DNA of 64,000 nucleotides from a phage: the sequence record PX994957.1. The stretch is one strand, 5' to 3'. How positions within the stretch are numbered: the first letter of the stretch is position 1; every line of letters starts with the position of its first letter. Shown piece after piece: positions 1,782-61,553 of this stretch. The notes under the pieces were generated by a model that was not told the origin of the DNA, did not search any database, and saw only the letters and a program-made list of their open reading frames with translations. Position numbers and translations under genes: made by a program.

Positions 1782-1928
1782 TTACCATACTAGTGAATGT
1801 AGTGCCATAATAACATCAGAAATGAAAAGCACGACTTGAATTAATCCGAACATTACTCCATAATATAGTGCTACTAATAAAGTAGCAAGGGCTAATGAAT
1901 AGCCCAAGATTTTCTTAATCATTTTCAT
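1782..1928 (-). CDS. 48-aa hydrophobic peptide
   Basis: ATG at 1928 overlapping upstream ORF end; MKMIKKILGYSLALATLLVALYYGVMFGLIQ; stop 4 nt before gene 52 ATG. Confidence 0.4.
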   Translation of the reverse strand: MKMIKKILGYSLALATLLVALYYGVMFGLIQVVLFISDVIMALHSLVW

Positions 1929-2067
1929 TTAATAGCCAAAACAATGATAAAATTGCTAATACGCCTTGAGCTGTTGCTTGTAAAAATACTGAAGTTTCTC
2001 CAGTTATTACTGTTCCGGCGAATAAAAAGGACCAGCAGAAAAAGGCTATACCATAAACAAATTTCAT
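1915..2067 (-). CDS. 50-aa membrane peptide, possible ac-like small protein
   Basis: ATG 2067 with SD GAGGAAAAT; MKFVYGIAFFCWSFLFAGTVITGETSVFLQ; T4 has small membrane ORFs ac/stp in this interval. Confidence 0.45.
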   Translation of the reverse strand: MKFVYGIAFFCWSFLFAGTVITGETSVFLQATAQGVLAILSLFWLLNEND

Positions 2068-2079
2068 ATTTTCCTCACT

Positions 2080-2095
2080 GGCGTCCGAAGACGCC
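2080..2095 (-). other. RNA stem-loop with UUCG tetraloop immediately 5' of an SD
   Basis: GGCGTC CGAA GACGCC perfect 6-bp stem; no U-tract, abuts SD of downstream ORF. Confidence 0.45.
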
Positions 2096-2154
2096 TTTAG
2101 TTTTAAAATTATTACGATAGAACTGCATCACATGTTCGTTATGGAAATTACTCA

Positions 2155-2613
2155 TTAATATGCCTGCAAAACGAATTTAAAGTTATCAGCCAACATACGG
2201 TTCATTTCTTCAAGTGTTTGATACTCAGAATGATGATTACGAGTAAACGCTAAAGCTAACTGTCCTTTTCCAAATCCCGTCGTCAGAGGTTTCATCTTAG
2301 AAGCAGGCAGATAAAACACTGTGTATGGAACATTGTTATTTGCAATAGTACGTGCAAGCTGAGACCGACGTTGACGAATATGACTTAGAACTGCACTGAA
2401 TCCTTGCTTAGAACGCTGATTACCTACATAAAATCGTGCTGACACACATGGATTACTAAATGGACGACCATCTAATTTACTTACTAAAAAGTAAAATCCA
2501 GGTTTAGATAAAATATCTTTATGCGGAGTTCCCAAAAACCACTCACCGCCCTTGATTGTACCAATAACAGTAGCACCTGCATCATTCAGATCAGTAACAG
2601 TCATATATTTCAT
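2155..2613 (-). CDS. ndd: Ndd nucleoid disruption protein
   Basis: 152 aa from ATG 2613 (SD GAGGAAATTAAT); T4 Ndd is 151 aa; position between denB and 52; track ORF N-terminal 16 codons are read-through. Confidence 0.75.
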
Positions 2614-2673
2614 ATTAATTTCCTCTAAATTATTTTCTACTCCAAGGCCGCATGAATACACACGGCCATTAAA

Positions 2674-2889
2674 TTAATCGTCGCAGTCGACGCTCAATTC
2701 CCAAAACTCTTCTACGGTATAAGTTTCAGTATCATTTTCAATACAGAAACGTTCATTACTGTTATTTGCTAAAGTAGCGTTAACTGTCGGTTTCTCGCTA
2801 GTGCTCTTAAGAGGTGAAATACGAATTAACTGATCACCGTTATCTAAACAGAAAATTTCACCAACTTTTACATCTTTAAAACTTTTCAT
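2674..2889 (-). CDS. hypothetical protein (ndd.x-type)
   Basis: 71 aa; ATG 2889 with SD GAGGTGA. Confidence 0.55.
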   Translation of the reverse strand: MKSFKDVKVGEIFCLDNGDQLIRISPLKSTSEKPTVNATLANNSNERFCIENDTETYTVEEFWELSVDCDD

Positions 2890-3004
2890 AATTCACCTCA
2901 AGGAGTATAAAATCCAAATGCAGTTGTTGACCATCCCATCCAATATGGAAAATTTGCACCAATGTAAAACATAAGAATATAAAACCAACCGCTCAACAAA
3001 TTCA

Positions 3005-3202
3005 TCATTTTACACCATTCCAAATTGTTTCAACTACTGATTTTAAACCATTTTGATAAATATCCATTCCGACTACTGCCATCAAATAGATTCCAACTAC
3101 AACTGAACCTAAGGCGAAAATCAGCATAAAAATAAATAAAGTCGGAAAAATATTATCGAAAAACCATTCAATAAATGTAAAAGCACCGCGTTTACGCTTC
3201 AT
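3005..3202 (-). CDS. 65-aa membrane protein
   Basis: ATG 3202 with SD GAGGAAAATA; hydrophobic core FIFMLIFALGSVVVGIYLMAVVG; track start is TTG read-through. Confidence 0.55.
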   Translation of the reverse strand: MKRKRGAFTFIEWFFDNIFPTLFIFMLIFALGSVVVGIYLMAVVGMDIYQNGLKSVVETIWNGVK

Positions 3203-3209
3203 ATTTTCC

Positions 3210-3323
3210 TCACATAAATCCAAAATAAGCGTTTAACATATCAATCATTAAAACGATTGGGAATATACTCAAAACTATTAGTATTATAACTACATTCCAT
3301 ATAGCTTTAACAATCTTTTTCAT
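3210..3323 (-). CDS. 37-aa hydrophobic peptide
   Basis: ATG 3323 after SD GGAGGAACA directly downstream of early promoter; MKKIVKAIWNVVIILIVLSIFPIVLMIDM. Confidence 0.45.
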   Translation of the reverse strand: MKKIVKAIWNVVIILIVLSIFPIVLMIDMLNAYFGFM

Positions 3324-3351
3324 TTTGTGTTCCTCCGTAGTTGATAGTTGT

Positions 3352-3382
3352 ATAGTACCACAGAGGAACAGTCTTGTAAACA
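3352..3382 (-). promoter_or_regulatory. T-even early promoter
   Basis: GTTTAC (3377-3382), 18-nt spacer, TACTAT (3352-3357); flanked by inverted repeat GTTCCTC/GAGGAAC. Confidence 0.55.
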
Positions 3383-3598
3383 ACTTTTTTAAAAATATTC
3401 GTAATAAATGTGAATACCAACTACTACCGCTGAAACCTGTGCAACCCACCACGCGCAAGCAATAAGTACAGAATTAAAAATTTTCATAATAACCTCATCA
3501 CAAAAGTAAATGTTAAACAAATTAATGGAATACTAATTAACCAAACAAAACACCACCATAATGAACTCATAGTTCAATCTCAACGATTTTCATTTTAC

Positions 3599-3805
3599 TC
3601 AATAATCCGCTAAAAGATCGACGATTGCATCACGAAGACACTTATTCGCAATACGTTTAAGAGCAATTTCAGTTTCTGGAGCATTTTGAATAATCATTGA
3701 ATTCAATTCAGCCTCAGCAAACTGAAGTTCTTTAACTAATTCAGCTTTATATTTTCCTTGCCCTTTCTTAGCTTTTGCTCGTTTTAATTCAGCTGTAGTA
3801 AACAT
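3599..3805 (-). CDS. hypothetical protein (denB-proximal)
   Basis: 68 aa from ATG 3805 with SD GGAGAATAAA; track start is TTG within promoter leader. Confidence 0.55.
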   Translation of the reverse strand: MFTTAELKRAKAKKGQGKYKAELVKELQFAEAELNSMIIQNAPETEIALKRIANKCLRDAIVDLLADY

Positions 3806-3839
3806 TTTATTCTCCAAATCCGTATCAGTTGATAGTTGT

Positions 3840-3869
3840 ATATTACCACAGTCCTTGTGGTATGTAAAC
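3840..3869 (-). promoter_or_regulatory. T-even early promoter
   Basis: GTTTAC (3864-3869), 18-nt spacer, TAATAT (3840-3845); spacer dyad CCACAGTCCTTGTGG. Confidence 0.5.
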
Positions 3870-3884
3870 CGTTTGTGAAAATTT

Positions 3885-4442
3885 TTAAATGGAAAGATAC
3901 CATCCGTTGTAGTTGCTTTTTCTTACAACCTTACGAAGGTCTTCTCTGTCACCGATGAACTTCGGAGTGTACTGGATGACACCTGGATGAATTTCTTTAG
4001 TGTTGAATATAATTATACAGTCAGCGACTTGATGATTTAGAATGGGCCCTAAATTTATTCCAGAACCATATGGATACTCTCCGCTGCATCCCGTTGTTAC
4101 CGAAATCCAACGCGAGTCAGTTTGATGTGTTTTGACTTCTACACGAAGCCCGCAATATTTTGGATGCGCTAAAACATCCCATGCATACGTGTACGGGTCA
4201 TTAACGTCCTCTTGGCCTTTGTTAACATACCCGCTTAGCCAATCTGCTACAAAAAACTCTGCGTACACCGCGATACGGCATCTTTCGATAACTTCTGCTT
4301 TATCCTGGTTCGGGTTTTGTTTTAAAGAGTATCTTGCTGTATCAGCAATTTTGACCTTCATTTCACTAGTCAAATCACTGTTCGATAGGGTAAATGTCGG
4401 AATCTGAAATAGTCTCTGTAAACCCGGATTCGTTTTCTGCAT
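3885..4442 (-). CDS. denB: DenB endonuclease IV
   Basis: 185 aa, equal to T4 DenB length; ATG 4442 with SD AAAGGAAAG; adjacent to rIIB side. Confidence 0.85.
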   Translation of the reverse strand: MQKTNPGLQRLFQIPTFTLSNSDLTSEMKVKIADTARYSLKQNPNQDKAEVIERCRIAVYAEFFVADWLSGYVNKGQEDVNDPYTYAWDVLAHPKYCGLRVEVKTHQTDSRWISVTTGCSGEYPYGSGINLGPILNHQVADCIIIFNTKEIHPGVIQYTPKFIGDREDLRKVVRKSNYNGWYLSI

Positions 4443-4704
4443 TTAGACTTTCCTTTTTACCGCTGAGATAAGCGTTATATACTTTAAGAGTGCCGTAATA
4501 AATTCGGTCATTTTCATCTAAAGACTCACGGTCAAGTTCATCGAGTTCCTTTTTATCCATGACTATAACATCATTGCAATAAAGAAACCCAAGTTTTTTG
4601 TGTCCAAACTCAAATTTATTACAGTACACAATATTAGCGTGATGATTACCATGTAGAGAAATTTCTTTTATGTCGGAATCACCGATATTCATACAATAAA
4701 TCAT
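4375..4704 (-). CDS. hypothetical protein; 3' end overlaps denB start by 68 nt
   Basis: 109 aa; ATG 4704 with SD AAGGTG. Confidence 0.5.
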   Translation of the reverse strand: MIYCMNIGDSDIKEISLHGNHHANIVYCNKFEFGHKKLGFLYCNDVIVMDKKELDELDRESLDENDRIYYGTLKVYNAYLSGKKESLNAENESGFTETISDSDIYPIEQ

Positions 4705-4721
4705 AATTCACCTTAAAACAA

Positions 4722-4737
4722 AAGGGCCGAAGCCCTT
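4722..4737 (-). terminator. UUCG-loop hairpin between genes
   Basis: AAGGGC CGAA GCCCTT; followed on minus strand by UUGUUUUAA then SD of next gene. Confidence 0.5.
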
Positions 4738-4740
4738 ATT

Positions 4741-4935
4741 TTATTTGAATTGTGCAATTCTTTTCTCTAGACACTCAGCATAAGATTTCATTGAGATGAA
4801 CTGTGAAAGCAGCAGTTCTTGCTCAACTGCACTAACCGTTAGAAACTTTGTGCTTTCTAAAAATTTGCTCAGTGCATTAATTTTGAGCATTAATTGATCG
4901 TATTCTTCTTTTACTCGTGCTTGATAACCTAACAT
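4741..4935 (-). CDS. hypothetical protein (rIIB.x-type)
   Basis: 64 aa; ATG 4935 with SD AAGGAAAAT. Confidence 0.55.
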   Translation of the reverse strand: MLGYQARVKEEYDQLMLKINALSKFLESTKFLTVSAVEQELLLSQFISMKSYAECLEKRIAQFK

Positions 4936-4949
4936 AATTTTCCTTAGTT

Positions 4950-4965
4950 AAGGGCCGAAGCCCTT
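4950..4965 (-). other. intercistronic UUCG-loop hairpin abutting rIIB stop
   Basis: AAGGGC CGAA GCCCTT overlapping rIIB stop codon, directly 5' of next SD. Confidence 0.5.
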
Positions 4966-5902
4966 ATTTAAATTGTTCAGTAACGTCTTCAATTACTTCG
5001 TATTGGCAGGTACGCATTTTAGCGTCGTTGTAATCAATCGGAATTGATACTACATCACGAGGATGAACTTTAACTTTTACAACTCGGCTGGTTGAACCAC
5101 CGAAGTGACGAATATAAGATTTAGAACACACATGCAGACCACGAGAACAAGTTTGTGTATCATCGTCATTCACACGAGTACGCGGCATTTTAACTACTTT
5201 ACCAGGACTGTTATCAAAGGTATTTGAGTGACAGTCAAAGTAATTGCTGCGAACTACTTTCCAAGCATAGAAGTAACCATCTTCTGTAATTTCAATATCG
5301 TTTGCTACCAAGAAATCAAAAAGTCGAGATACCGCTTTCTGGCTTGGGTTTTCCAGCAGATTTTCCAAGAACGGAAAATAAACTTCAAAGTTTTCGCCTT
5401 TTTCCATCGAATCAAGAATACGATCAACCAAACCAGACCGCAATTCAATATTTTGATAGAATAAGCTTCCACCTTCAATTCGAACATCGCCGGAAATATA
5501 TTTTTCAACAGCGCGACGAACATTAATTTTTTGTGCCGCTTCTTCCAGCTTATCCGCTACAAGCAGATTGAGAATTTCCTGGAAGTTTGAATGAGTATTA
5601 GGTGTTGCATTATAAGTTACACCATCGACAGTAATCGAAATGAATTTTTTAGATGCATTCCAAATAATGTCAGATTTAGTAACTGGAGCAATAACTGCAT
5701 CGCTATTAACTTTAACTGTAATATCACCGCTAATAGTAACTTTAGAGCGTTTAGCTTCTTCAGCATTTTTCAAAACACGACGGATTGTATCAACCGATAC
5801 ACCTTGCCAATCAGCCAATTCCTGCTGAGTATAATTACCGCTTGAATACAGTTTAACAATTTCAGCTTGTTCGTTTTTGGTCAGGCATTTAATATTGTAC
5901 AT
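4964..5902 (-). CDS. rIIB: RIIB
   Basis: 312 aa, equal to T4 rIIB; immediately downstream of rIIA. Confidence 0.9.
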   Translation of the reverse strand: MYNIKCLTKNEQAEIVKLYSSGNYTQQELADWQGVSVDTIRRVLKNAEEAKRSKVTISGDITVKVNSDAVIAPVTKSDIIWNASKKFISITVDGVTYNATPNTHSNFQEILNLLVADKLEEAAQKINVRRAVEKYISGDVRIEGGSLFYQNIELRSGLVDRILDSMEKGENFEVYFPFLENLLENPSQKAVSRLFDFLVANDIEITEDGYFYAWKVVRSNYFDCHSNTFDNSPGKVVKMPRTRVNDDDTQTCSRGLHVCSKSYIRHFGGSTSRVVKVKVHPRDVVSIPIDYNDAKMRTCQYEVIEDVTEQFK

Positions 5903-5913
5903 AATTTTCCTTA

Positions 5914-8091
5914 TTAGGCCGCAAGGGCCTTCATAGTTTTAGCGATTTGGGAAACTTCATCATCACTTAAAGAGTTGCGATATCCGATGAAGTCGGAAAC
6001 AATACGGAATTTCTTGGTAAACTCAGCAACCATTTTATCACTGTTTTTTGAAGCATTATTTGATAATACATCAAAAAGATTAGTTACTGTCCAGATATCA
6101 TGACCGATGGTATCTTTTCCACCATTAAAATATACACCGCGCAATGAACTAACTATATTAGCGAGTCGTGTATATTCTTCAGAAACTTCATCTGTACTGA
6201 AGTACTTCATCATAAAATCTAGCTCAGGATACTTGATAATTTTATCAATATATCGTTGAGCTGAACTTGAATAACCTACATACTTATCATAATCTACATC
6301 ATCAAAAGCATCTACATATAAATCACGCAAAGCTTCAAAAATACATTGGCACTGACCGAGTTCTTTTACCTTTTTCTGTAAAAGCGGACGAATAACATAA
6401 AATTCATTAATGCCAATAAGATTAGCCATACGAATCAAAATATTCATAGATGGATGACAAAGTGATGTAGTACCATCCATAGAGAAAATATCAGAACGAT
6501 GCATATACGCTACATAACCAGTAATTTCATCTGCTTCTGACGTAAGTGTAAATAGTTCCTCTTTTTCCCAGCGCCCATCTTTAATTTCAAATTTAAATGC
6601 TGTAGCAGCTTTAGGACGAGGAGCTTTACTTTTAACTACCTTTGGAATATAACTTTTAACCAAAGCTTCAATTTCTGACAAATAGTGAATGTTAACTTCA
6701 TCACTTTCAAACATCGCCATAATATCAGGGAGTAAATCAATCTGCGATTCTACTTCCGGATTAATAAACAGAAGACGCTCATTGTGATGAATATTCAAAG
6801 TGTTATTAAATTCACTATCATCTAACGCGTGTGCTAATCCACGGACAATATTAACACGATTTTTAATATTATCAATAACGATATTAATTTTTGTTGTATT
6901 AATACCAAACAGACGATAACTTGATGCAACGGCTGAAGTTTCATGACTTTGCTTAATGCGTTTCAGTCGAGGGTCAAGATTTACTTCATACACCACGCCT
7001 GCATTACATAACTTACTGTCAGGTTCAAACATGCTCTGCATCTTCTTATATGACAGATTTTTAGTCGTGAATTTGACTGAATTACTAATCATATAATCTC
7101 GAGCAGAATAGCCCATTTTCATTAACTCGCGATACGTATGGCGAGGAGATGTAGATTCTTTAAATCGTTTTACATCTTCATTAAATGCTTTCTCACTAAG
7201 CTCTTTAACTCGTTCAATAATATTTTTACGAGTACGATCATCCAATGAAAGAGCTTCACGTGATGGAGCAATATCAAGTGAACCCATTGGAAACTTAATG
7301 TAATTCACTTCATTGCGAATGCTTAGCCAGTTACGGTCTCTAATAACACCATCGATAGGATAAACAATACCGCCATAGATAGCATATAATCCACCACGAT
7401 CAGGCCAGTATCTTTCTGGATTTACACCGTAATAATCATCAAAATCCGGAAAATAATCAATTTCACGGTCAAGACCATTAATAATAGCCAAATCTTTGAA
7501 CGGTCGCATGATATAAGAAACTTCATAAGCAAAGTTTCTAAAGTCTTTTTCTTCAACTGGAACTACGATTTCAATACCAGTTTTATCATCTGGACCCATT
7601 TCTTTTACGAATGTAGGTTTAATCTGTGGGCCATCACCATCCATGTAAGCTACATAACCACGAATTTCACCTTTATGATACGAAGTAATACTAAACGTAT
7701 CAGTATAACTAAACGGAGATTTAGAACCTAAACCAAATCCGCCAATGAAATCGTTAGATTCAGCCTTAGATGAACTGAAGTATGAATTATACAAACCAGG
7801 AGAATTATCATCACCCTGAATATCAAAATCACTCATACCCGGACCAAAATCTCGGCAAACAAATCGTGGATCTAAACGTCCAGGAACTTGAATGATAAAT
7901 TTTTCAGGATTTCCATTGAGAGCATGGGCATCAATCATGTTGGTAATCAATTCACGAACAACTGCGCGAATCTTATTTGTATACAAATCAGATGATAAGA
8001 TTTTAAATACTTTAGGAGATGCTGTGATGCTAAATGCTTTTGATTTAGAACCATTACCAAGAATTGTTTCTTTTTCAGTGGTGATAATCAT
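5914..8091 (-). CDS. rIIA: RIIA (GHKL-ATPase-like membrane-associated protein)
   Basis: 725 aa, equal to T4 rIIA; ATG 8091 with SD GAGGAAATTA. Confidence 0.93.
5916..5930 (-). other. rIIA-rIIB intercistronic hairpin
   Basis: AGGCC gcaag GGCCT palindrome between rIIA stop and rIIB SD. Confidence 0.45.
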
Positions 8092-8330: not shown

Positions 8331-8360
8331 ATTATACCACATCCTTGTGGTAAAGTAAAC
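8331..8360 (-). promoter_or_regulatory. T-even early promoter for rIIA.1-rIIA-rIIB
   Basis: GTTTAC (8355-8360), 18-nt spacer, TGgTATAAT extended -10 (8331-8339); spacer dyad CCACATCCTTGTGG. Confidence 0.6.
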
Positions 8361-10177
8361 TACTGGCTCATCCATTCTTTACGAAGGTCAGCATTATCTC
8401 CCATGAGCATTTCAAAAAGCTCTTTCCAGTTCTCAGGAAGTTTAACAACATCATATACTGGATTTTGAATCATCTCACGATATTCAGATTTTTCCAAAGA
8501 GCCAAGTCCCTTAATATAACGGATGCTATGTTTAGGTAGAGCATCTTTAGCACTCTCATATTCAGCGACTGTATAAAACCATTCTTGTTTTTTACCGACC
8601 TGAGCGATGATTACAGGAGTTTTGACAAAGCGAATTCGTCCTTGCTCAAACAATTCTGGCCAATTACTAAAAAATCCGAGCAGAGAAGGATAAATGCTTC
8701 CTAGACCATCATGGTCAGCATCGGTCATAATAGCAATATTATGATAATTCAAGTTTTCAGCTTTTTCACCAAGAACTAATCCAGTGATTGCGCAAATATC
8801 AAACAGTTCTTTGTTTTTAAGCATATCAGCATATGACATACCCCAACTGTTGAGAACTTTACCACGCAATGGATAACCACCGTGAAGTTCTTTATCACGA
8901 ACATCAATAAGATATCCGATAGCAGAATCACCCTCAGTCAAGAAAAGAGTAGTGTCAGCATCTTTACCACAAAGATTCGCTTTGATATGTTTATGAACCT
9001 TAGCTTTAGAAGCCTTTTTAGCTGCTTTAGTTTCTGCCGCTTTTTCTGCTGCCAATTTACGGGCCAAGGCAGCTTCAATAATTGGCATCAAAATAGCTTC
9101 ATTATTTAGAATAGCGCGTGAAATCTTTTTAGCATCAAGTTGAATATGACTACGAATTTCGCCAAATGGAGAAGTCAAACGCTCTTTAGTCTGAGAATCA
9201 AATCGCATGTTTTTCATATCACGAACAAACATAACGATAGTCAAACATTCTTTAACACGTGCTTTAGTCACATCAATTTTGAACTTACGTTTGATTTGTG
9301 GAATAAGGTCTTCACAAATATCATCCATAACACAGTCAATGTGATGGCCACCATTCTTAGTGTGAATGTTATTCACATAAGTTAATTGACGAAATCCATC
9401 CGGTGAACGACCAACAGCAATAGAACAATTTTCTTGTTCTTGAACAATAGCATGCTCATCATATTGGCGTGCATATTTCTTAAAATTACCCTGAACCTTT
9501 TTACCATTAAAGGTAAATTGAATATCAGGATAAACGACAGCAAGTGTCTGGAGACGATCCAGTGTAATGTCAAGATAAACCTGAGACAGCTCATTAGTTT
9601 CAAATGACATAAAATCAGGAATGAAAGTAACACGAGTTCCTTTCCATTTTCCAGGAATAGTTTCCCAGGATTTATTTTCCATACCATTTGAACAACGAAC
9701 TACAATATTATTTTGACCATCGCCAGTTTCACCGACAAACATCACAGAAAAAATGTTTGTCAAACTAGAACCAACACCATTCATACCACCGGTGACGCGT
9801 TCTTTATCATCACCGAAGTTACCACCTGCTTTTGGAATAGTCCAGGCAGCAACAGGACCAGGAATTTCTTCACCGGTAGGTGTTTTAACCATCGCTTGTG
9901 GAATACCGCGACCGTTATCTTCAACTGTTACCTGATTATTTTTAATGGTAACATTAATTTTATTCGCGAATTTAAACTTAGTACGAATACCTTCATCTAC
10001 TGAGTTATCGATAATTTCATCAATAAGCTTAACAAGACCAGGTACATACTGAACACTTTCCCATTTACCAAACAGAAAGCGCTCATGCATTTCATTAGCA
10101 GAAGAGCCAATATACATGCCGCTACGCTTTTTGATATGTTCAATATCGCTCAGAATTTTAATTTCATTCTTAATCAT
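8360..10177 (-). CDS. 39: DNA topoisomerase II large subunit gp39, unsplit (no gene 60)
   Basis: 605 aa from ATG 10177 (SD GAGGATAAGTG); MIKNEIKILSDIEHIKKRSGMYIG; GHKL ATPase and TOPRIM regions contiguous in one ORF. Confidence 0.92.
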   Translation of the reverse strand: MIKNEIKILSDIEHIKKRSGMYIGSSANEMHERFLFGKWESVQYVPGLVKLIDEIIDNSVDEGIRTKFKFANKINVTIKNNQVTVEDNGRGIPQAMVKTPTGEEIPGPVAAWTIPKAGGNFGDDKERVTGGMNGVGSSLTNIFSVMFVGETGDGQNNIVVRCSNGMENKSWETIPGKWKGTRVTFIPDFMSFETNELSQVYLDITLDRLQTLAVVYPDIQFTFNGKKVQGNFKKYARQYDEHAIVQEQENCSIAVGRSPDGFRQLTYVNNIHTKNGGHHIDCVMDDICEDLIPQIKRKFKIDVTKARVKECLTIVMFVRDMKNMRFDSQTKERLTSPFGEIRSHIQLDAKKISRAILNNEAILMPIIEAALARKLAAEKAAETKAAKKASKAKVHKHIKANLCGKDADTTLFLTEGDSAIGYLIDVRDKELHGGYPLRGKVLNSWGMSYADMLKNKELFDICAITGLVLGEKAENLNYHNIAIMTDADHDGLGSIYPSLLGFFSNWPELFEQGRIRFVKTPVIIAQVGKKQEWFYTVAEYESAKDALPKHSIRYIKGLGSLEKSEYREMIQNPVYDVVKLPENWKELFEMLMGDNADLRKEWMSQ

Positions 10178-10204
10178 CACTTATCCTCGTTTGGTTTCGG
10201 GAAT

Positions 10205-10232
10205 ATTATACTCCGGCAATCATAAAGCTAAA
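10205..10232 (-). promoter_or_regulatory. candidate MotA-dependent middle promoter for gene 39
   Basis: TATAAT at 10205-10210 with MotA-box-like TAGCTTTA 12 nt upstream (one mismatch to TGCTTtA). Confidence 0.4.
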
Positions 10233-10246
10233 GGCCCGAAGGCCTT
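10231..10246 (-). terminator. UUCG-loop hairpin after lipoprotein gene
   Basis: AAGGCC CGAA GGCCTT immediately after stop at 10247. Confidence 0.45.
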
Positions 10247-10507
10247 TTATTTAAAACGAATAGTTGAATCCTTAAAGAACAACCCAGAACATACTGTTCC
10301 TTCTACTTTCTGCCCAGTAGGTCCAATAGCACGAAATCCAGTATGTTGGAAATCATTTTCAGAGCAACCGAACCAATTATATCCAGTGATTTCAATATTC
10401 GTAAAACCACTCGATGATAAAATTTTAGTTGCATTATCAGCATCAGTACATCCTACTAAAGATACTGCTAATACTAATGCTGCAATAGAACGATTAATAT
10501 ATTTCAT
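10247..10507 (-). CDS. predicted lipoprotein (signal peptide + lipobox LVGC)
   Basis: 86 aa from ATG 10507; MKYINRSIAALVLAVSLVGCTD. Confidence 0.6.
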   Translation of the reverse strand: MKYINRSIAALVLAVSLVGCTDADNATKILSSSGFTNIEITGYNWFGCSENDFQHTGFRAIGPTGQKVEGTVCSGLFFKDSTIRFK

Positions 10508-12586: not shown

Positions 12587-12630
12587 AGTTATCTCTCACT
12601 TGTTAAAAAGATTTTATACTCCACAGGACC

Positions 12631-12660
12631 ATTATACTCTGGTCCCAAGAGTTTGTAAAC
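12631..12660 (-). promoter_or_regulatory. T-even early promoter upstream of motB
   Basis: GTTTAC (12655-12660), 18-nt spacer, TATAAT (12631-12636); -10 bracketed by GGACC/GGTCC inverted repeat. Confidence 0.55.
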
Positions 12661-21377: not shown

Positions 21378-21518
21378 TTACAATTTAGCGGCTTTCCAGA
21401 GTTGTTCAATAATCTCTTGGTCTATTTCTTTAGTTATTTCATTACGTAATAAAGCAGTAAGGGCTTTCGCCCTTTTCTTATTCAACTTTTTGAGTTGACG
21501 TTTATTTAAACAAGCCAT
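21378..21518 (-). CDS. possible 46-aa basic protein; may be non-coding
   Basis: ATG overlaps gp56 stop (TAATG) but no SD; contains GAAA-loop hairpin (21460-21475) and MotA-box-like TGCTTTA. Confidence 0.3.
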   Translation of the reverse strand: MACLNKRQLKKLNKKRAKALTALLRNEITKEIDQEIIEQLWKAAKL

Positions 21519-25291: not shown

Positions 25292-25320
25292 AACAATCTC
25301 CTCATTTAACCAACAAGACT

Positions 25321-25350
25321 ACTATACCATAGTCTTGTCAGTTTGTAAAC
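25321..25350 (-). promoter_or_regulatory. T-even early promoter upstream of dmd
   Basis: GTTTAC (25345-25350), 18-nt spacer, TATAGT (25321-25326); dyad CAAGACTA / TAGTCTTG around -10. Confidence 0.5.
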
Positions 25351-33942: not shown

Positions 33943-33960
33943 AAGGGGCCGAAGCCCCTT
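33943..33960 (-). terminator. UUCG-loop hairpin
   Basis: AAGGGGC CGAA GCCCCTT immediately after stop at 33963. Confidence 0.5.
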
Positions 33961-36080: not shown

Positions 36081-36115
36081 AATTTCCTCATTCAAGTTTT
36101 AGTGTAAATTATAAA

Positions 36116-36127
36116 GGGCCGAAGCCC
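36116..36127 (-). other. UUCG-loop hairpin between 45 and 44
   Basis: GGGC CGAA GCCC after gp45 stop. Confidence 0.45.
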
Positions 36128-36131
36128 TCTA

Positions 36132-36818
36132 TTAAAAATCGTGGGTAGAATCAGCTTCAAGAGCTACTACATAATTCGCGTGTTCACCTTCAAATTTAGC
36201 AGCACCTTGTTTACCTTTTGCCCAGAGCAGAAGTTTATAATTTCCTGGTTGCATTTTCATATTTGCCATATTGATAATGAAATTAAATGTATTTTCACCA
36301 TCATAATCACCAAGAGTCAAAGAATATTTAACACGGGTCAGAGCAGAATCTTCTACTTTATTAAAACCGTTAATTACGATTTTACCTTCTTTTACCGTGA
36401 TAGCAATTGTATCAATTTGCAGACCACGAGATACACGCAACAGTTGTTGAAGGTCTTCAGCTTTAATTTCAGTAACAACAGATGCTACCGGGAATGGAAT
36501 TGGTTTATTAGGAGCAACTACTGTACTCGGATCGGCTGCTGGCCAAAAAATTGTTGAACGAGCATCAGCAATTTTAATATTTCCATCTTCTGACTGGGAA
36601 ATTTCTGCATCATCATTAACTAGAGACAGAATACCGAGAAAACCGTTCAAATCGTAAATTGCTACATCAAAATCAATAACGTCAGAAATATTTGCTTCCG
36701 CATAAGTTGTACCATTAACTGCTCGAGTCATAATAAATTGACCGGATTTAAGCATAATACCAGAGTTAATAGTAGCGAAATTTTTCAGCAGAGCAGTAGT
36801 ATCTTTAGACAGTTTCAT
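36132..36818 (-). CDS. 45: gp45 sliding clamp
   Basis: 228 aa, equal to T4 gp45; SD AAGGAAATTAC. Confidence 0.9.
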   Translation of the reverse strand: MKLSKDTTALLKNFATINSGIMLKSGQFIMTRAVNGTTYAEANISDVIDFDVAIYDLNGFLGILSLVNDDAEISQSEDGNIKIADARSTIFWPAADPSTVVAPNKPIPFPVASVVTEIKAEDLQQLLRVSRGLQIDTIAITVKEGKIVINGFNKVEDSALTRVKYSLTLGDYDGENTFNFIINMANMKMQPGNYKLLLWAKGKQGAAKFEGEHANYVVALEADSTHDF

Positions 36819-37461: not shown

Positions 37462-37478
37462 GTTTTTCCTCCACAGAG

Positions 37479-37502
37479 ATTATACTCTAATAAATTAAAG
37501 CA
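37479..37502 (-). promoter_or_regulatory. MotA-dependent middle promoter
   Basis: MotA box aTGCTTTA, 11-nt spacer, TATAAT (37479-37484); inside inverted repeat GAGATTAT / ATAATCTC. Confidence 0.5.
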
Positions 37503-37516
37503 TAATCTCTTATAAA

Positions 37517-40799: not shown

Positions 40800-40822
40800 T
40801 ATATCAAACTCTGTATAAAGCT

Positions 40823-40840
40823 AAAGGGCCGAAGCCCTTT
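40823..40840 (-). terminator. UUCG-loop hairpin after a-gt
   Basis: AAAGGGC CGAA GCCCTTT overlapping a-gt stop, followed by U/A-rich tract. Confidence 0.5.
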
Positions 40841-42041
40841 ATTTTGTAATAATGTCAAACTGTTCTTTAAAGCAGAAGCTTGAATCTTGATGCTGATACA
40901 AAAATTCATAAGCTTTTTCGCGTTCGCGGTCATAAAGAGTTCGGTCAGATGACAGTTCTTTAATACGTTCAAATGTTGATTCCATGTCATTTTCATCAAA
41001 CCAAATGATACCGCTATCATGCGAGGTCAAAGGAGTATTATCAACACGGAATTTTAAATTTTCGCCAGTAGATTTCCAAAATACCGGAATTGTTCCACAT
41101 GCACCAAGCTCGAGATGAGTATATTCTAAAGAACGTTGTAGATATTTTTTGTCCAACTTACTCAGCTGATAACCAAATCCGGATTTACTCATACGTTCAA
41201 GCATTTCGCTATTTACATAACGGTCAAGAATTTGCGTTGGCAAATTAGGAGCAATTTTAATTTGGTCTACTTGATGAAGACGATAATACTCGTATGGAAT
41301 TCCTTTTTCTTTAATAGGAATGAACGCTGGAGAACGTTCCAGACCTTCCATAATAGTACTTAGTCCTGCAGGTTTAAGATGTTTTTCATGAAAATCAAAC
41401 ATCTGATAAAAACCTTTCCATGTAGTCGTACGACCAATCCAACGGTTAACATTCATGTTAATTTCAGAAACATCTTTCCAGTAGGTTGATCGAACCTTCG
41501 CAATATCCATAGGAGGCTGAAAGTTATATACTGTCGGTGCTTCTTCAATATCATCAAACAGAGAAACAGTTTCTGGATACCATTCTTTCATCAGAACTTT
41601 ATTAAAATCACCATTATCAGAATGGCTAAAAATAACATCAGCTCGACGAACAGTTTCTTCTAATCCCAAATTTCGGCGCAAAGAAAGAGAAGAATGGTCA
41701 TGTTGATAAACTACAACACGAACCGAAGGTTTAATGTTATCAATAATTTTTTTATAGTTATTAATAGTGTCTTCTTCAACTGAAGTAGCAGGAACTGAAT
41801 TGATAATTAGAATATCACAATCATTTACCAGCTTAAGTGTTTTATCATATTCTTTTGCCAATAAAACCGGAATTGAAAATGATTTATAATCATGCGCGCA
41901 ATTACGAGTAAATGATTTATCTTTAGCATAAACCAAAGTCACTTCATGACCATTTTTAATAAACCAATCACGTTGCTCGAGTGAGAATTTTGTTACACCA
42001 CAACCTTCAAGACCTCGAGCCATAAAAATACATACTTTCAT
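40839..42041 (-). CDS. a-gt: alpha-glucosyltransferase
   Basis: 400 aa, equal to T4 a-gt; N-terminus ICIFMARGLEGCGVTKFSLEQRDWFIKNGHEV as recalled. Confidence 0.92.
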   Translation of the reverse strand: MKVCIFMARGLEGCGVTKFSLEQRDWFIKNGHEVTLVYAKDKSFTRNCAHDYKSFSIPVLLAKEYDKTLKLVNDCDILIINSVPATSVEEDTINNYKKIIDNIKPSVRVVVYQHDHSSLSLRRNLGLEETVRRADVIFSHSDNGDFNKVLMKEWYPETVSLFDDIEEAPTVYNFQPPMDIAKVRSTYWKDVSEINMNVNRWIGRTTTWKGFYQMFDFHEKHLKPAGLSTIMEGLERSPAFIPIKEKGIPYEYYRLHQVDQIKIAPNLPTQILDRYVNSEMLERMSKSGFGYQLSKLDKKYLQRSLEYTHLELGACGTIPVFWKSTGENLKFRVDNTPLTSHDSGIIWFDENDMESTFERIKELSSDRTLYDREREKAYEFLYQHQDSSFCFKEQFDIITK

Positions 42042-42090: not shown

Positions 42091-42094
42091 TATA

Positions 42095-42109
42095 GGAGCC
42101 GAAGCTCCT
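42095..42109 (-). other. UUCG-loop hairpin
   Basis: GGAGC CGAA GCTCC directly upstream of the MotA box. Confidence 0.45.
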
Positions 42110-42284
42110 ATCCACATAATACGCCATACAGAGGCTCGTTAGAACTTTTAAATTTTATGCGCTTATATTTTATAGTTCCTTCTGCTTTAGCTTTATCATG
42201 AGACTCTTTAAAGCGTCTCATCATTTCCTCTTTAGAGGAACGAACTTTATTATAATCTATTTCAGAAGTCTGGGTGTTCATCTT

Positions 42285-53073: not shown

Positions 53074-53103
53074 ATTATACCACATCCTTGTGGTAAAGTA
53101 AAC
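53074..53103 (-). promoter_or_regulatory. T-even early promoter
   Basis: GTTTAC (53098-53103), 18-nt spacer, TATAAT (53074-53079); same spacer dyad as the rIIA.1 promoter. Confidence 0.55.
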
Positions 53104-60667: not shown

Positions 60668-60695
60668 TCTCTTCTCCTCAGCAGTTGACAAGATT

Positions 60696-60725
60696 ACTAT
60701 ACCATAACCTTGCCAACTTGTAAAC
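60696..60725 (-). promoter_or_regulatory. T-even early promoter
   Basis: GTTTAC (60720-60725), 18-nt spacer, TATAGT (60696-60701). Confidence 0.5.
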
Positions 60726-61537: not shown

Positions 61538-61553
61538 CGGTAAAATGAAAAAA

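Follow-up and report, generated by a model that had tools for sequence, protein, structure and literature searches.

The stretch of phage DNA analysed here (sequence record PX994957.1; 64,000 nucleotides (nt), hereafter the window) carries three GC-rich hairpins, termed hairpins 1, 2 and 3, at the 3' ends of the genes stp, rIIB and rIIA, respectively. The hairpins fold on the minus strand, which is the sense strand of the early genes in this region, and each is followed within a few nucleotides by the Shine-Dalgarno sequence (SD) of the next gene and not by a U-tract. Comparison with related phages indicates that base pairing is selected on the sense-strand RNA, even in the absence of a U-tract and even within coding regions. 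The three are T4-type cistron-end hairpins that, by analogy with other bacterial and phage messages, may act as RNA barriers against decay from the 3' end, perhaps combined with some weak pausing or termination, an interpretation to which we give an even chance.

Structure and position of the hairpins

The three hairpins, and a fourth that was included in the comparison, are listed below. Stability is given as nearest-neighbour free energy (ΔG) only, which for hairpins 1 and 2 amounts to about -10 kcal/mol over 16-18 nt.

2080-2095, minus strand: hairpin 1, GGCGUC-UUCG-GACGCC, a C(UUCG)G tetraloop on a stem of 6 base pairs (bp), ΔG -10.0
4949-4966, minus strand: hairpin 2, UAAGGGC-UUCG-GCCCUUA, a C(UUCG)G tetraloop, ΔG -10.1
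5916-5930, minus strand: hairpin 3, AGGCC-CUUGC-GGCCU, a CUUGC pentaloop, ΔG -7.0
4715-4737, minus strand: hairpin 4, AAGGGC-UUCG-GCCCUU followed by a UUGUUUU tail, located after denB.1 and terminator-like

The sense-strand tails of hairpins 1, 2 and 3 are AGUGAGGAAA, ACUAAGGAAA and AAUAAGGAAA, each with a single U in its first 8 nt. In all three cases the SD begins 3-4 nt past the stem and the AUG lies 13-14 nt past it. Hairpin 1 is made of codons 21-25 of stp (GVFGR), the base of the hairpin 2 stem contains the rIIB stop codon UAA (4966-4964), and hairpin 3 is formed by the last five codons of rIIA (KALAA), with the U of the stop codon UAA (5916-5914) as its 3' base. Each hairpin thus overlaps the end of a translated open reading frame (ORF), and a terminating ribosome must melt it. 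Hairpin 3 occupies an analogous position but is an ordinary GC hairpin, which its loop places outside the UUCG class; its folding alone is unremarkable (z = -0.13), and it is conservation only that marks it out.

An earlier note on this DNA, made from the letters alone, had located the three hairpins correctly, and its description of them as lacking a downstream U-run and abutting the next SD, with the middle one overlapping the rIIB stop, was borne out on the minus strand. The note had assigned UUCG loops to all three, which is right for hairpins 1 and 2; the loop of hairpin 3 is CUUGC. Its placement of the hairpins between a stop codon and the next SD had to be revised, since hairpin 1 lies inside stp, the hairpin 2 stem holds the rIIB stop, and hairpin 3, which the note had put between rIIA and rIIB, consists of terminal rIIA codons. 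The junction that it had called ndd-52 is actually that between ndd/stp and ac.

Conservation and covariation across phage genera

The rIIA-rIIB-denB-ndd region was compared between T4 and representatives of eleven other lineages, named as Mosigvirus, Dhakavirus, Jiaodavirus, Gelderlandvirus, Tegunavirus, Slopekvirus, Krischvirus, Biquartavirus, and Providencia and Acinetobacter phages. Searches of the IMG/VR viral contigs returned 8 loci with the rIIB protein and 12 loci with the junction pattern, few of them informative, and GenBank phage records were used for this reason. Of 12 Straboviridae lineages, 11 have a GC-rich hairpin, mostly with a UUCG loop, just past the rIIB stop; the one exception is Krischvirus. 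When eight different stems were aligned on the loop they were 100% paired, with five of six pairs changed on both sides, a count that is biased because the rows had been picked for being hairpins. The post-rIIB hairpin is followed by a U-tract in about half of the lineages (Mosigvirus, Gelderlandvirus, Jiaodavirus, Biquartavirus and the Providencia phage); it has none in Tequatrovirus, Dhakavirus, Slopekvirus and the Acinetobacter phage, and Tegunavirus is borderline. Three compensatory pairs differ between the stems of Tequatrovirus (AAGGGC/GCCCUU) and Dhakavirus (GGAGGC/GCCUCC) despite the lack of a U-tract in both, which argues that the post-rIIB hairpin is under selection without one.

At the 3' end of rIIA, a hairpin was present in six of the ten lineages that could be examined there, with unrelated stem sequences. 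The orthologs of hairpin 3 in Mosigvirus and Dhakavirus display two compensatory synonymous double changes, GCC..GCG to GCU..GCA and AAG..GCC to AAA..GCU, and in the alignable relatives 89% of the cells were paired, compared with 25-46% in slid controls.

T4 and one Dhakavirus copy of stp carry hairpin 1 unchanged, and the two variants observed alter it to G-U pairs only. Such changes would be A-C mismatches on the antisense strand and are therefore compatible only with folding of the sense-strand RNA. The nucleotides that encode hairpin 1 are almost invariant among the relatives. Since removal of the eight C-terminal stp codons lowers Stp activity only moderately, and that part of the protein is polymorphic (PMC3014915), this near-invariance is probably better explained by constraint at the RNA level than by protein function.

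A second stp-like copy with the same hairpin, in which the 3' arm is GACGCU, was observed in three Dhakavirus-like loci (L014, L028 and L031). The ATG start is replaced by CGG in L014 and L028 and kept in L031, and this copy may be a pseudogene or a fusion to the upstream ORF. The T4 reference sequence (NC_000866) has one G fewer in the hairpin 2 stem and one C fewer in the hairpin 4 stem than the window and most relatives; the difference may be genuine, or else an old error caused by gel compression at GC-rich hairpins.

A class of sense-strand UUCG hairpins

The sequence CTTCGG occurs 32 times in the window, where 12 would be expected. C(UUCG)G hairpins with a stem of at least 5 bp numbered 13 on the sense strand and one on the other strand, while dinucleotide shuffles gave a mean of 0.17. 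Eleven of the 13 fall -18 to +40 nt from the stop codon of an ORF that is 50 amino acids or longer, a zone that makes up 12% of positions, and the twelfth is hairpin 1, in the short stp gene. Among the 12 UUCG hairpins with a stem of at least 6 bp, eight lack a U-tract, one of these being located between genes 45 and 44; only four (at 61553, 57552, 44465 and 4722) have one, defined as four or more U among the 5 nt directly past the stem. Hairpins 1 and 2 are examples of a genome-wide class of cistron-end hairpins on the sense strand. The Rfam covariance models returned no match that passed the gathering threshold anywhere in the window, nor any with E<=1 in the interval 1900-6100.

The class itself is not new. 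The T4 C(UUCG)G hairpins were described as 'extraordinarily stable' by Tuerk et al. (1988, PNAS 85:1364), according to the summaries in PMC4371310 and PMC8948821. Hairpins 1, 2 and 4 share with them the phage group, the CUUCGG loop, the C-G closing pair on a Watson-Crick stem and an intercistronic or gene-end position; hairpin 3, with its CUUGC loop, is not a member by loop sequence, and hairpins 1 and 3 differ further by lying inside coding sequence and not between cistrons. The strand ratio of 13:1 and the proximity of 11 of 13 hairpins to a stop codon agree with a class located on the transcribed strand at gene ends in a T4-type phage. Cistron-end CUUCGG hairpins in T4 have been known since 1988 and are a textbook RNA motif, and hairpins 1 and 2 belong to this already-known class.

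A proposed barrier to 3'-end decay

Hairpins 1, 2 and 3 resemble intrinsic terminators in being GC-rich stem-loops at gene ends (stems of 5-7 bp with 4-5 G-C pairs), in having orthologs with a U-tract in other T4-like genera and, for hairpins 1 and 2, in the UUCG loop that is frequent in terminators. They differ in lacking a U-rich tract directly 3' of the stem, in the SD that begins 3-4 nt past it and in the need of the downstream genes for read-through. A scan with a terminator consensus did not call any of the three on the sense strand. Given the missing U-tract and the close SD, they do not appear, as far as can be judged from sequence, to be efficient or canonical intrinsic terminators. 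The earlier note had preferred a stabilising or processing role to termination; the latter half of that statement agrees with these results, and the stabilising half is an extension from analogy, which nevertheless appears to be the most plausible of the readings offered there.

According to the proposed mechanism, the hairpins would form in sense-strand early and middle polycistronic mRNA and, in the absence of a U-tract, most RNA polymerase would pass into the next gene, that is, into ac, denB.1 or rIIB. The message would then be cut or terminated further downstream, possibly by RNase E or RNase G in the AU-rich AAAAUUAUG initiation regions or by Rho-dependent termination. Host 3'-to-5' exonucleases (PNPase, RNase II or RNase R) would trim the RNA back until halted by the hairpin, and the upstream cistron (stp/ndd, rIIB or rIIA) would be left as a defined and more stable segment. 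We infer both the barrier function and the identity of the nucleases from known systems. The host 3' exonucleases active in T4 infection have been listed, with the 3' ends made by RNase E as their entry sites (PMC3014915). CUUCGG hairpins are abundant in T4 intergenic regions (PMC8948821; PMC4371310), and it is stated that their 'known functions vary', one having been reported to stabilise gene 32 mRNA (PMC8948821). In E. coli, the 3' ends made by Rho-dependent termination fold into terminator-like stem-loops without U-tracts, according to Dar and Sorek (2018) as cited in PMC13613805. The likeness to these is a stable hairpin at a cistron end within a longer transcript and a proposed role as an exonuclease barrier; the phage sites differ in overlapping stop codons or coding sequence. 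The phage hairpins are also much shorter than REP elements, which are intercistronic stabilisers.

Several observations weigh against a barrier. Ribosomes that finish the upstream ORFs would repeatedly melt the hairpins, such that protection would be available only between passages or after the last one. Hairpin 3 is weak by both ΔG (-7) and z score (-0.13), and four of the ten genera examined at the 3' end of rIIA showed no hairpin. Full terminators, with hairpin and U-tract, occupy orthologous positions in other genera, which leaves room for a role in termination or attenuation. Finally, a look through the literature for maps of T4 transcript ends (Term-seq, Rend-seq, SEnd-seq or Oxford Nanopore Technologies (ONT) sequencing) retrieved nothing specific to T4, and neither 3' ends nor half-lives were found for transcripts at these sites.

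Gene map of the region

Matches to the first 9 kb of the window came from T4-like phages (Tequatrovirus), namely Escherichia virus CAM-21, at 99% identity, and hundreds of relatives. Gene names in the region of the three hairpins were transferred from annotated relatives and from T4 itself. The genes and initiation regions are as follows, in transcription order.

5914-8091, minus strand: rIIA, first in transcription order (transferred annotation)
5897-5912, minus strand: rIIB initiation region, with SD AAGGA at 5912-5908 and AUG at 5902-5900
5908-5897, minus strand: RegA operator sequence AAAAUUAUGUAC within the rIIB initiation region, a site quoted in PMC3014915
4964-5902, minus strand: rIIB, after rIIA (transferred annotation)
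4933-4945, minus strand: denB.1 initiation region, with SD AAGGA at 4945-4941 and AUG at 4935-4933
4741-4935, minus strand: denB.1, after rIIB (transferred annotation)
4375-4704, minus strand: 109-codon ORF (orf109), after denB.1 and followed by denB and then the ndd.x genes
2155-2613, minus strand: ndd (transferred annotation)
2075-2155, minus strand: stp, 26 codons, from translation and the T4 annotation, its start overlapping the ndd stop (UAAUG)
2065-2076, minus strand: ac initiation region, with SD GAGGA at 2076-2072 and AUG at 2067-2065, the SD overlapping the stp stop UGA (2077-2075)
1915-2067, minus strand: ac, from the ORF and annotated relatives, followed by 52.1 and gene 52

The 81 nt that follow ndd were found by translation to encode the 26-residue Stp peptide. 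This gene is annotated in T4 and is absent from the annotation of many records, including those of the closest relatives OP611477 and LR746311. Where stp is left unannotated, the ndd-ac interval, and with it hairpin 1, appears to be non-coding and intergenic. Upstream of rIIA, the large topoisomerase subunit is a single ORF of ~605 codons of the '60plus39' type (8360-10180, minus strand), and this phage therefore lacks the gene 60/mobA insertion of T4 together with the 50-nt translational bypass.

The denB.1 insertion

The gene next after rIIB in Mosigvirus, Jiaodavirus and Gelderlandvirus is a homolog of the 109-codon ORF, and a hairpin with a U-tract separates the two. In Tequatrovirus and Dhakavirus, denB.1 sits between the post-rIIB hairpin and the 109-codon ORF, and the U-tract is gone. 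On either side of denB.1 in the window stands one copy of a 26-nt direct repeat with the AAGGGCUUCGGCCCUU hairpin inside it (minus strand, 4722-4747 and 4950-4975; 92% identity); only the downstream copy has a U-tract, and rIIB and denB.1 both end in QFK-stop. The repeat looks like the 3' end of rIIB duplicated upon insertion of the denB.1 cassette. The terminator hairpin, likewise, looks as if it had been duplicated or split by the insertion, in the spirit of the modular shuffling of PeSL elements (PMC4122927). The exact 16-mer AAGGGCTTCGGCCCTT is present four times in the window. T4 is without ~270 nt of the 109-codon ORF (window ~4401-4672), a deletion located between GATTCCGACAT direct repeats. 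Hairpin 4 was considered as the boundary of this indel and was ruled out, the breakpoints being the GATTCCGACAT repeats.

PeSL and PmSL are composite stem-loop and promoter cassettes of T4-like phages (Arbiol 2010; Comeau 2014, PMC4122927). Hairpins 1, 2 and 3 share with them a location at gene boundaries in hyperplastic early regions, with repeated hairpins flanking denB.1. No promoter lies between any of the three stem-loops and the SD, where only 12-13 nt precede the AUG, all of them taken up by SD and spacer. Other U-less hairpins of the window come closer to these cassettes: those at 10230-10247, 40822-40841 and 42092-42111, together with one at 21459-21474 (all minus strand), are followed within a few nucleotides by a Mot-box-like (T)GCTTTA, and as composites of stem-loop and middle promoter they resemble the PmSL elements of other T4-like phages.

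Alternative explanations

The hairpins could be leaky or conditional terminators, or pause sites, that set the ratio of upstream to downstream transcript at cistron ends, with an efficiency that may depend on the distance of the trailing ribosome or on host or phage factors. We regard this as rather unlikely. In its favour are the post-rIIB orthologs with a U-tract in the lineages listed above, the hairpin and U-run that also mark the Mosigvirus ndd-ac junction, and hairpin 4, whose 16-mer is identical to that of hairpin 2 but is followed by a U-tract, 228 nt downstream and after denB.1. GenBank record MK327937 labels hairpins 1, 2 and 4 'putative transcriptional terminator'; these labels, however, are computational predictions. 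Efficient intrinsic termination by E. coli RNA polymerase requires a U-tract, and only one U is found in the 8 nt past each stem. Moreover, the 13 nt before the next AUG are too short to hold a promoter, so the downstream genes rely on read-through. Termination of antisense (plus-strand) transcription is far less probable and was judged unlikely in the extreme. The consensus scan does call all three sites on the plus strand, with the T-rich tails TTTAGTTTTA, TTTAAATTGT and TCATAGTTTT, but these tails are complementary to lysine and UAA codons, and the genome is AT-rich. The plus-strand loop would be CGAA, which is not specially stable and leaves the 13:1 sense bias of the UUCG loops unexplained, the G-U variants of hairpin 1 become mismatches on that strand, and no plus-strand genes were found near the three hairpins in the ORF list or in the annotated relatives.

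It is also conceivable, though quite improbable, that the hairpins are parts of the downstream initiation regions, where they would shield the ribosome-binding site, gate re-initiation or coupling, or frame the RegA operator. The distance from stem to AUG is near constant (13-14 nt in all three, and 12-13 nt in Dhakavirus and Slopekvirus), the rIIB initiation region beside hairpin 3 is a known RegA site (PMC3014915), and a U-less UUCG hairpin at 36111-36132 lies upstream of gene 44, another RegA target. However, the short spacing may just reflect compact intergenic regions, and the rIIA hairpin of Jiaodavirus is ~30 nt from the SD. The energy required to open positions -13 to +6 was calculated with the native, a shuffled or a deleted hairpin and with 60, 150 or 300 nt of upstream context, and was not consistently lower with the native hairpin across the three context lengths. 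Given this lack of a consistent dependence of SD and AUG accessibility on the hairpin, and the Jiaodavirus spacing, the translational-coupling barrier that the earlier note had offered found no support. In classical genetics, complementation of rIIB mutants persists with nonsense mutations in rIIA, an indication that rIIB is initiated independently. Slightly more doubtful again is the notion that the hairpins are evolutionary by-products or recombination motifs, half-terminators left behind by cassette insertion that would serve at most as short homologies for shuffling, like the PeSL stem-loops (PMC4122927). The gain of denB.1 together with the loss of the U-tract in Tequatrovirus and Dhakavirus, the direct repeat with its hairpin around denB.1 and the four copies of AAGGGCTTCGGCCCTT all speak for such a history. 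Against it, pairing was kept by compensatory changes after the U-tract had been lost, the 13:1 sense bias and the G-U variants indicate a function in RNA and not in DNA homology, and the indel that separates T4 from the window lies between GATTCCGACAT repeats, away from the hairpin.

Nuclease sites and other hairpins in the window

Two specific nuclease sites were considered and rejected for hairpins 1, 2 and 3: cleavage by RNase III, as the stems are only 5-7 bp, and by RegB, whose sites are GGAG (or GGAU) in an intergenic SD with A-rich sequence after it, as the SDs (GAGGA, AAGGA and AAGGA, respectively) are without GGAG. Elsewhere on the minus strand, stable hairpins with GGAG 1-8 nt later were observed at 2646-2667, 33943-33960, 12624-12647, 37475-37510, 60683-60718 and 25308-25343. 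The GGAG, at which the T4 RegB nuclease cuts, is often inside the next SD with A-rich sequence after it, and a RegB cut just past these hairpins would leave an upstream fragment that ends just beyond the hairpin. The hairpins at 25308-25343 and 60683-60718 both have 15-bp stems and a common core, CAAGRYTATGGTATAGTARTCTTG (0 expected by chance), and each sits 16-17 nt upstream of the AUG of a small ORF. In addition, a palindrome, TACCACAAGGATGTGGTA, is present at 8335-8352 and 53078-53095, with a variant at 3844-3862 (minus strand), where it occupies the spacer/extended -10 position of predicted early promoters (TTTACW-N17-TATAAT).

Significance

The protection of cistron ends from 3' decay, the reading favoured here, concerns a known motif and has little weight as a discovery; its remaining value is practical and evolutionary. 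Hairpins 1, 2 and 3 should not be annotated as efficient terminators, as is done in at least one GenBank record. It is a tentative proposal, and on the whole an improbable one, that they are former terminators whose U-tracts were displaced by insertion of the denB.1 and stp cassettes and which were then kept by compensatory evolution, also within coding regions, as translation-gated barriers to decay. If this were true, the last codons of stp and rIIA would owe more to RNA structure than to protein function, and one type of element would toggle between terminator and stabiliser as modules shuffle. Since pairing appears to be selected without a U-tract, even in coding sequence, these sites are clean candidates for probing the part that U-less hairpins may play in phage mRNA decay.

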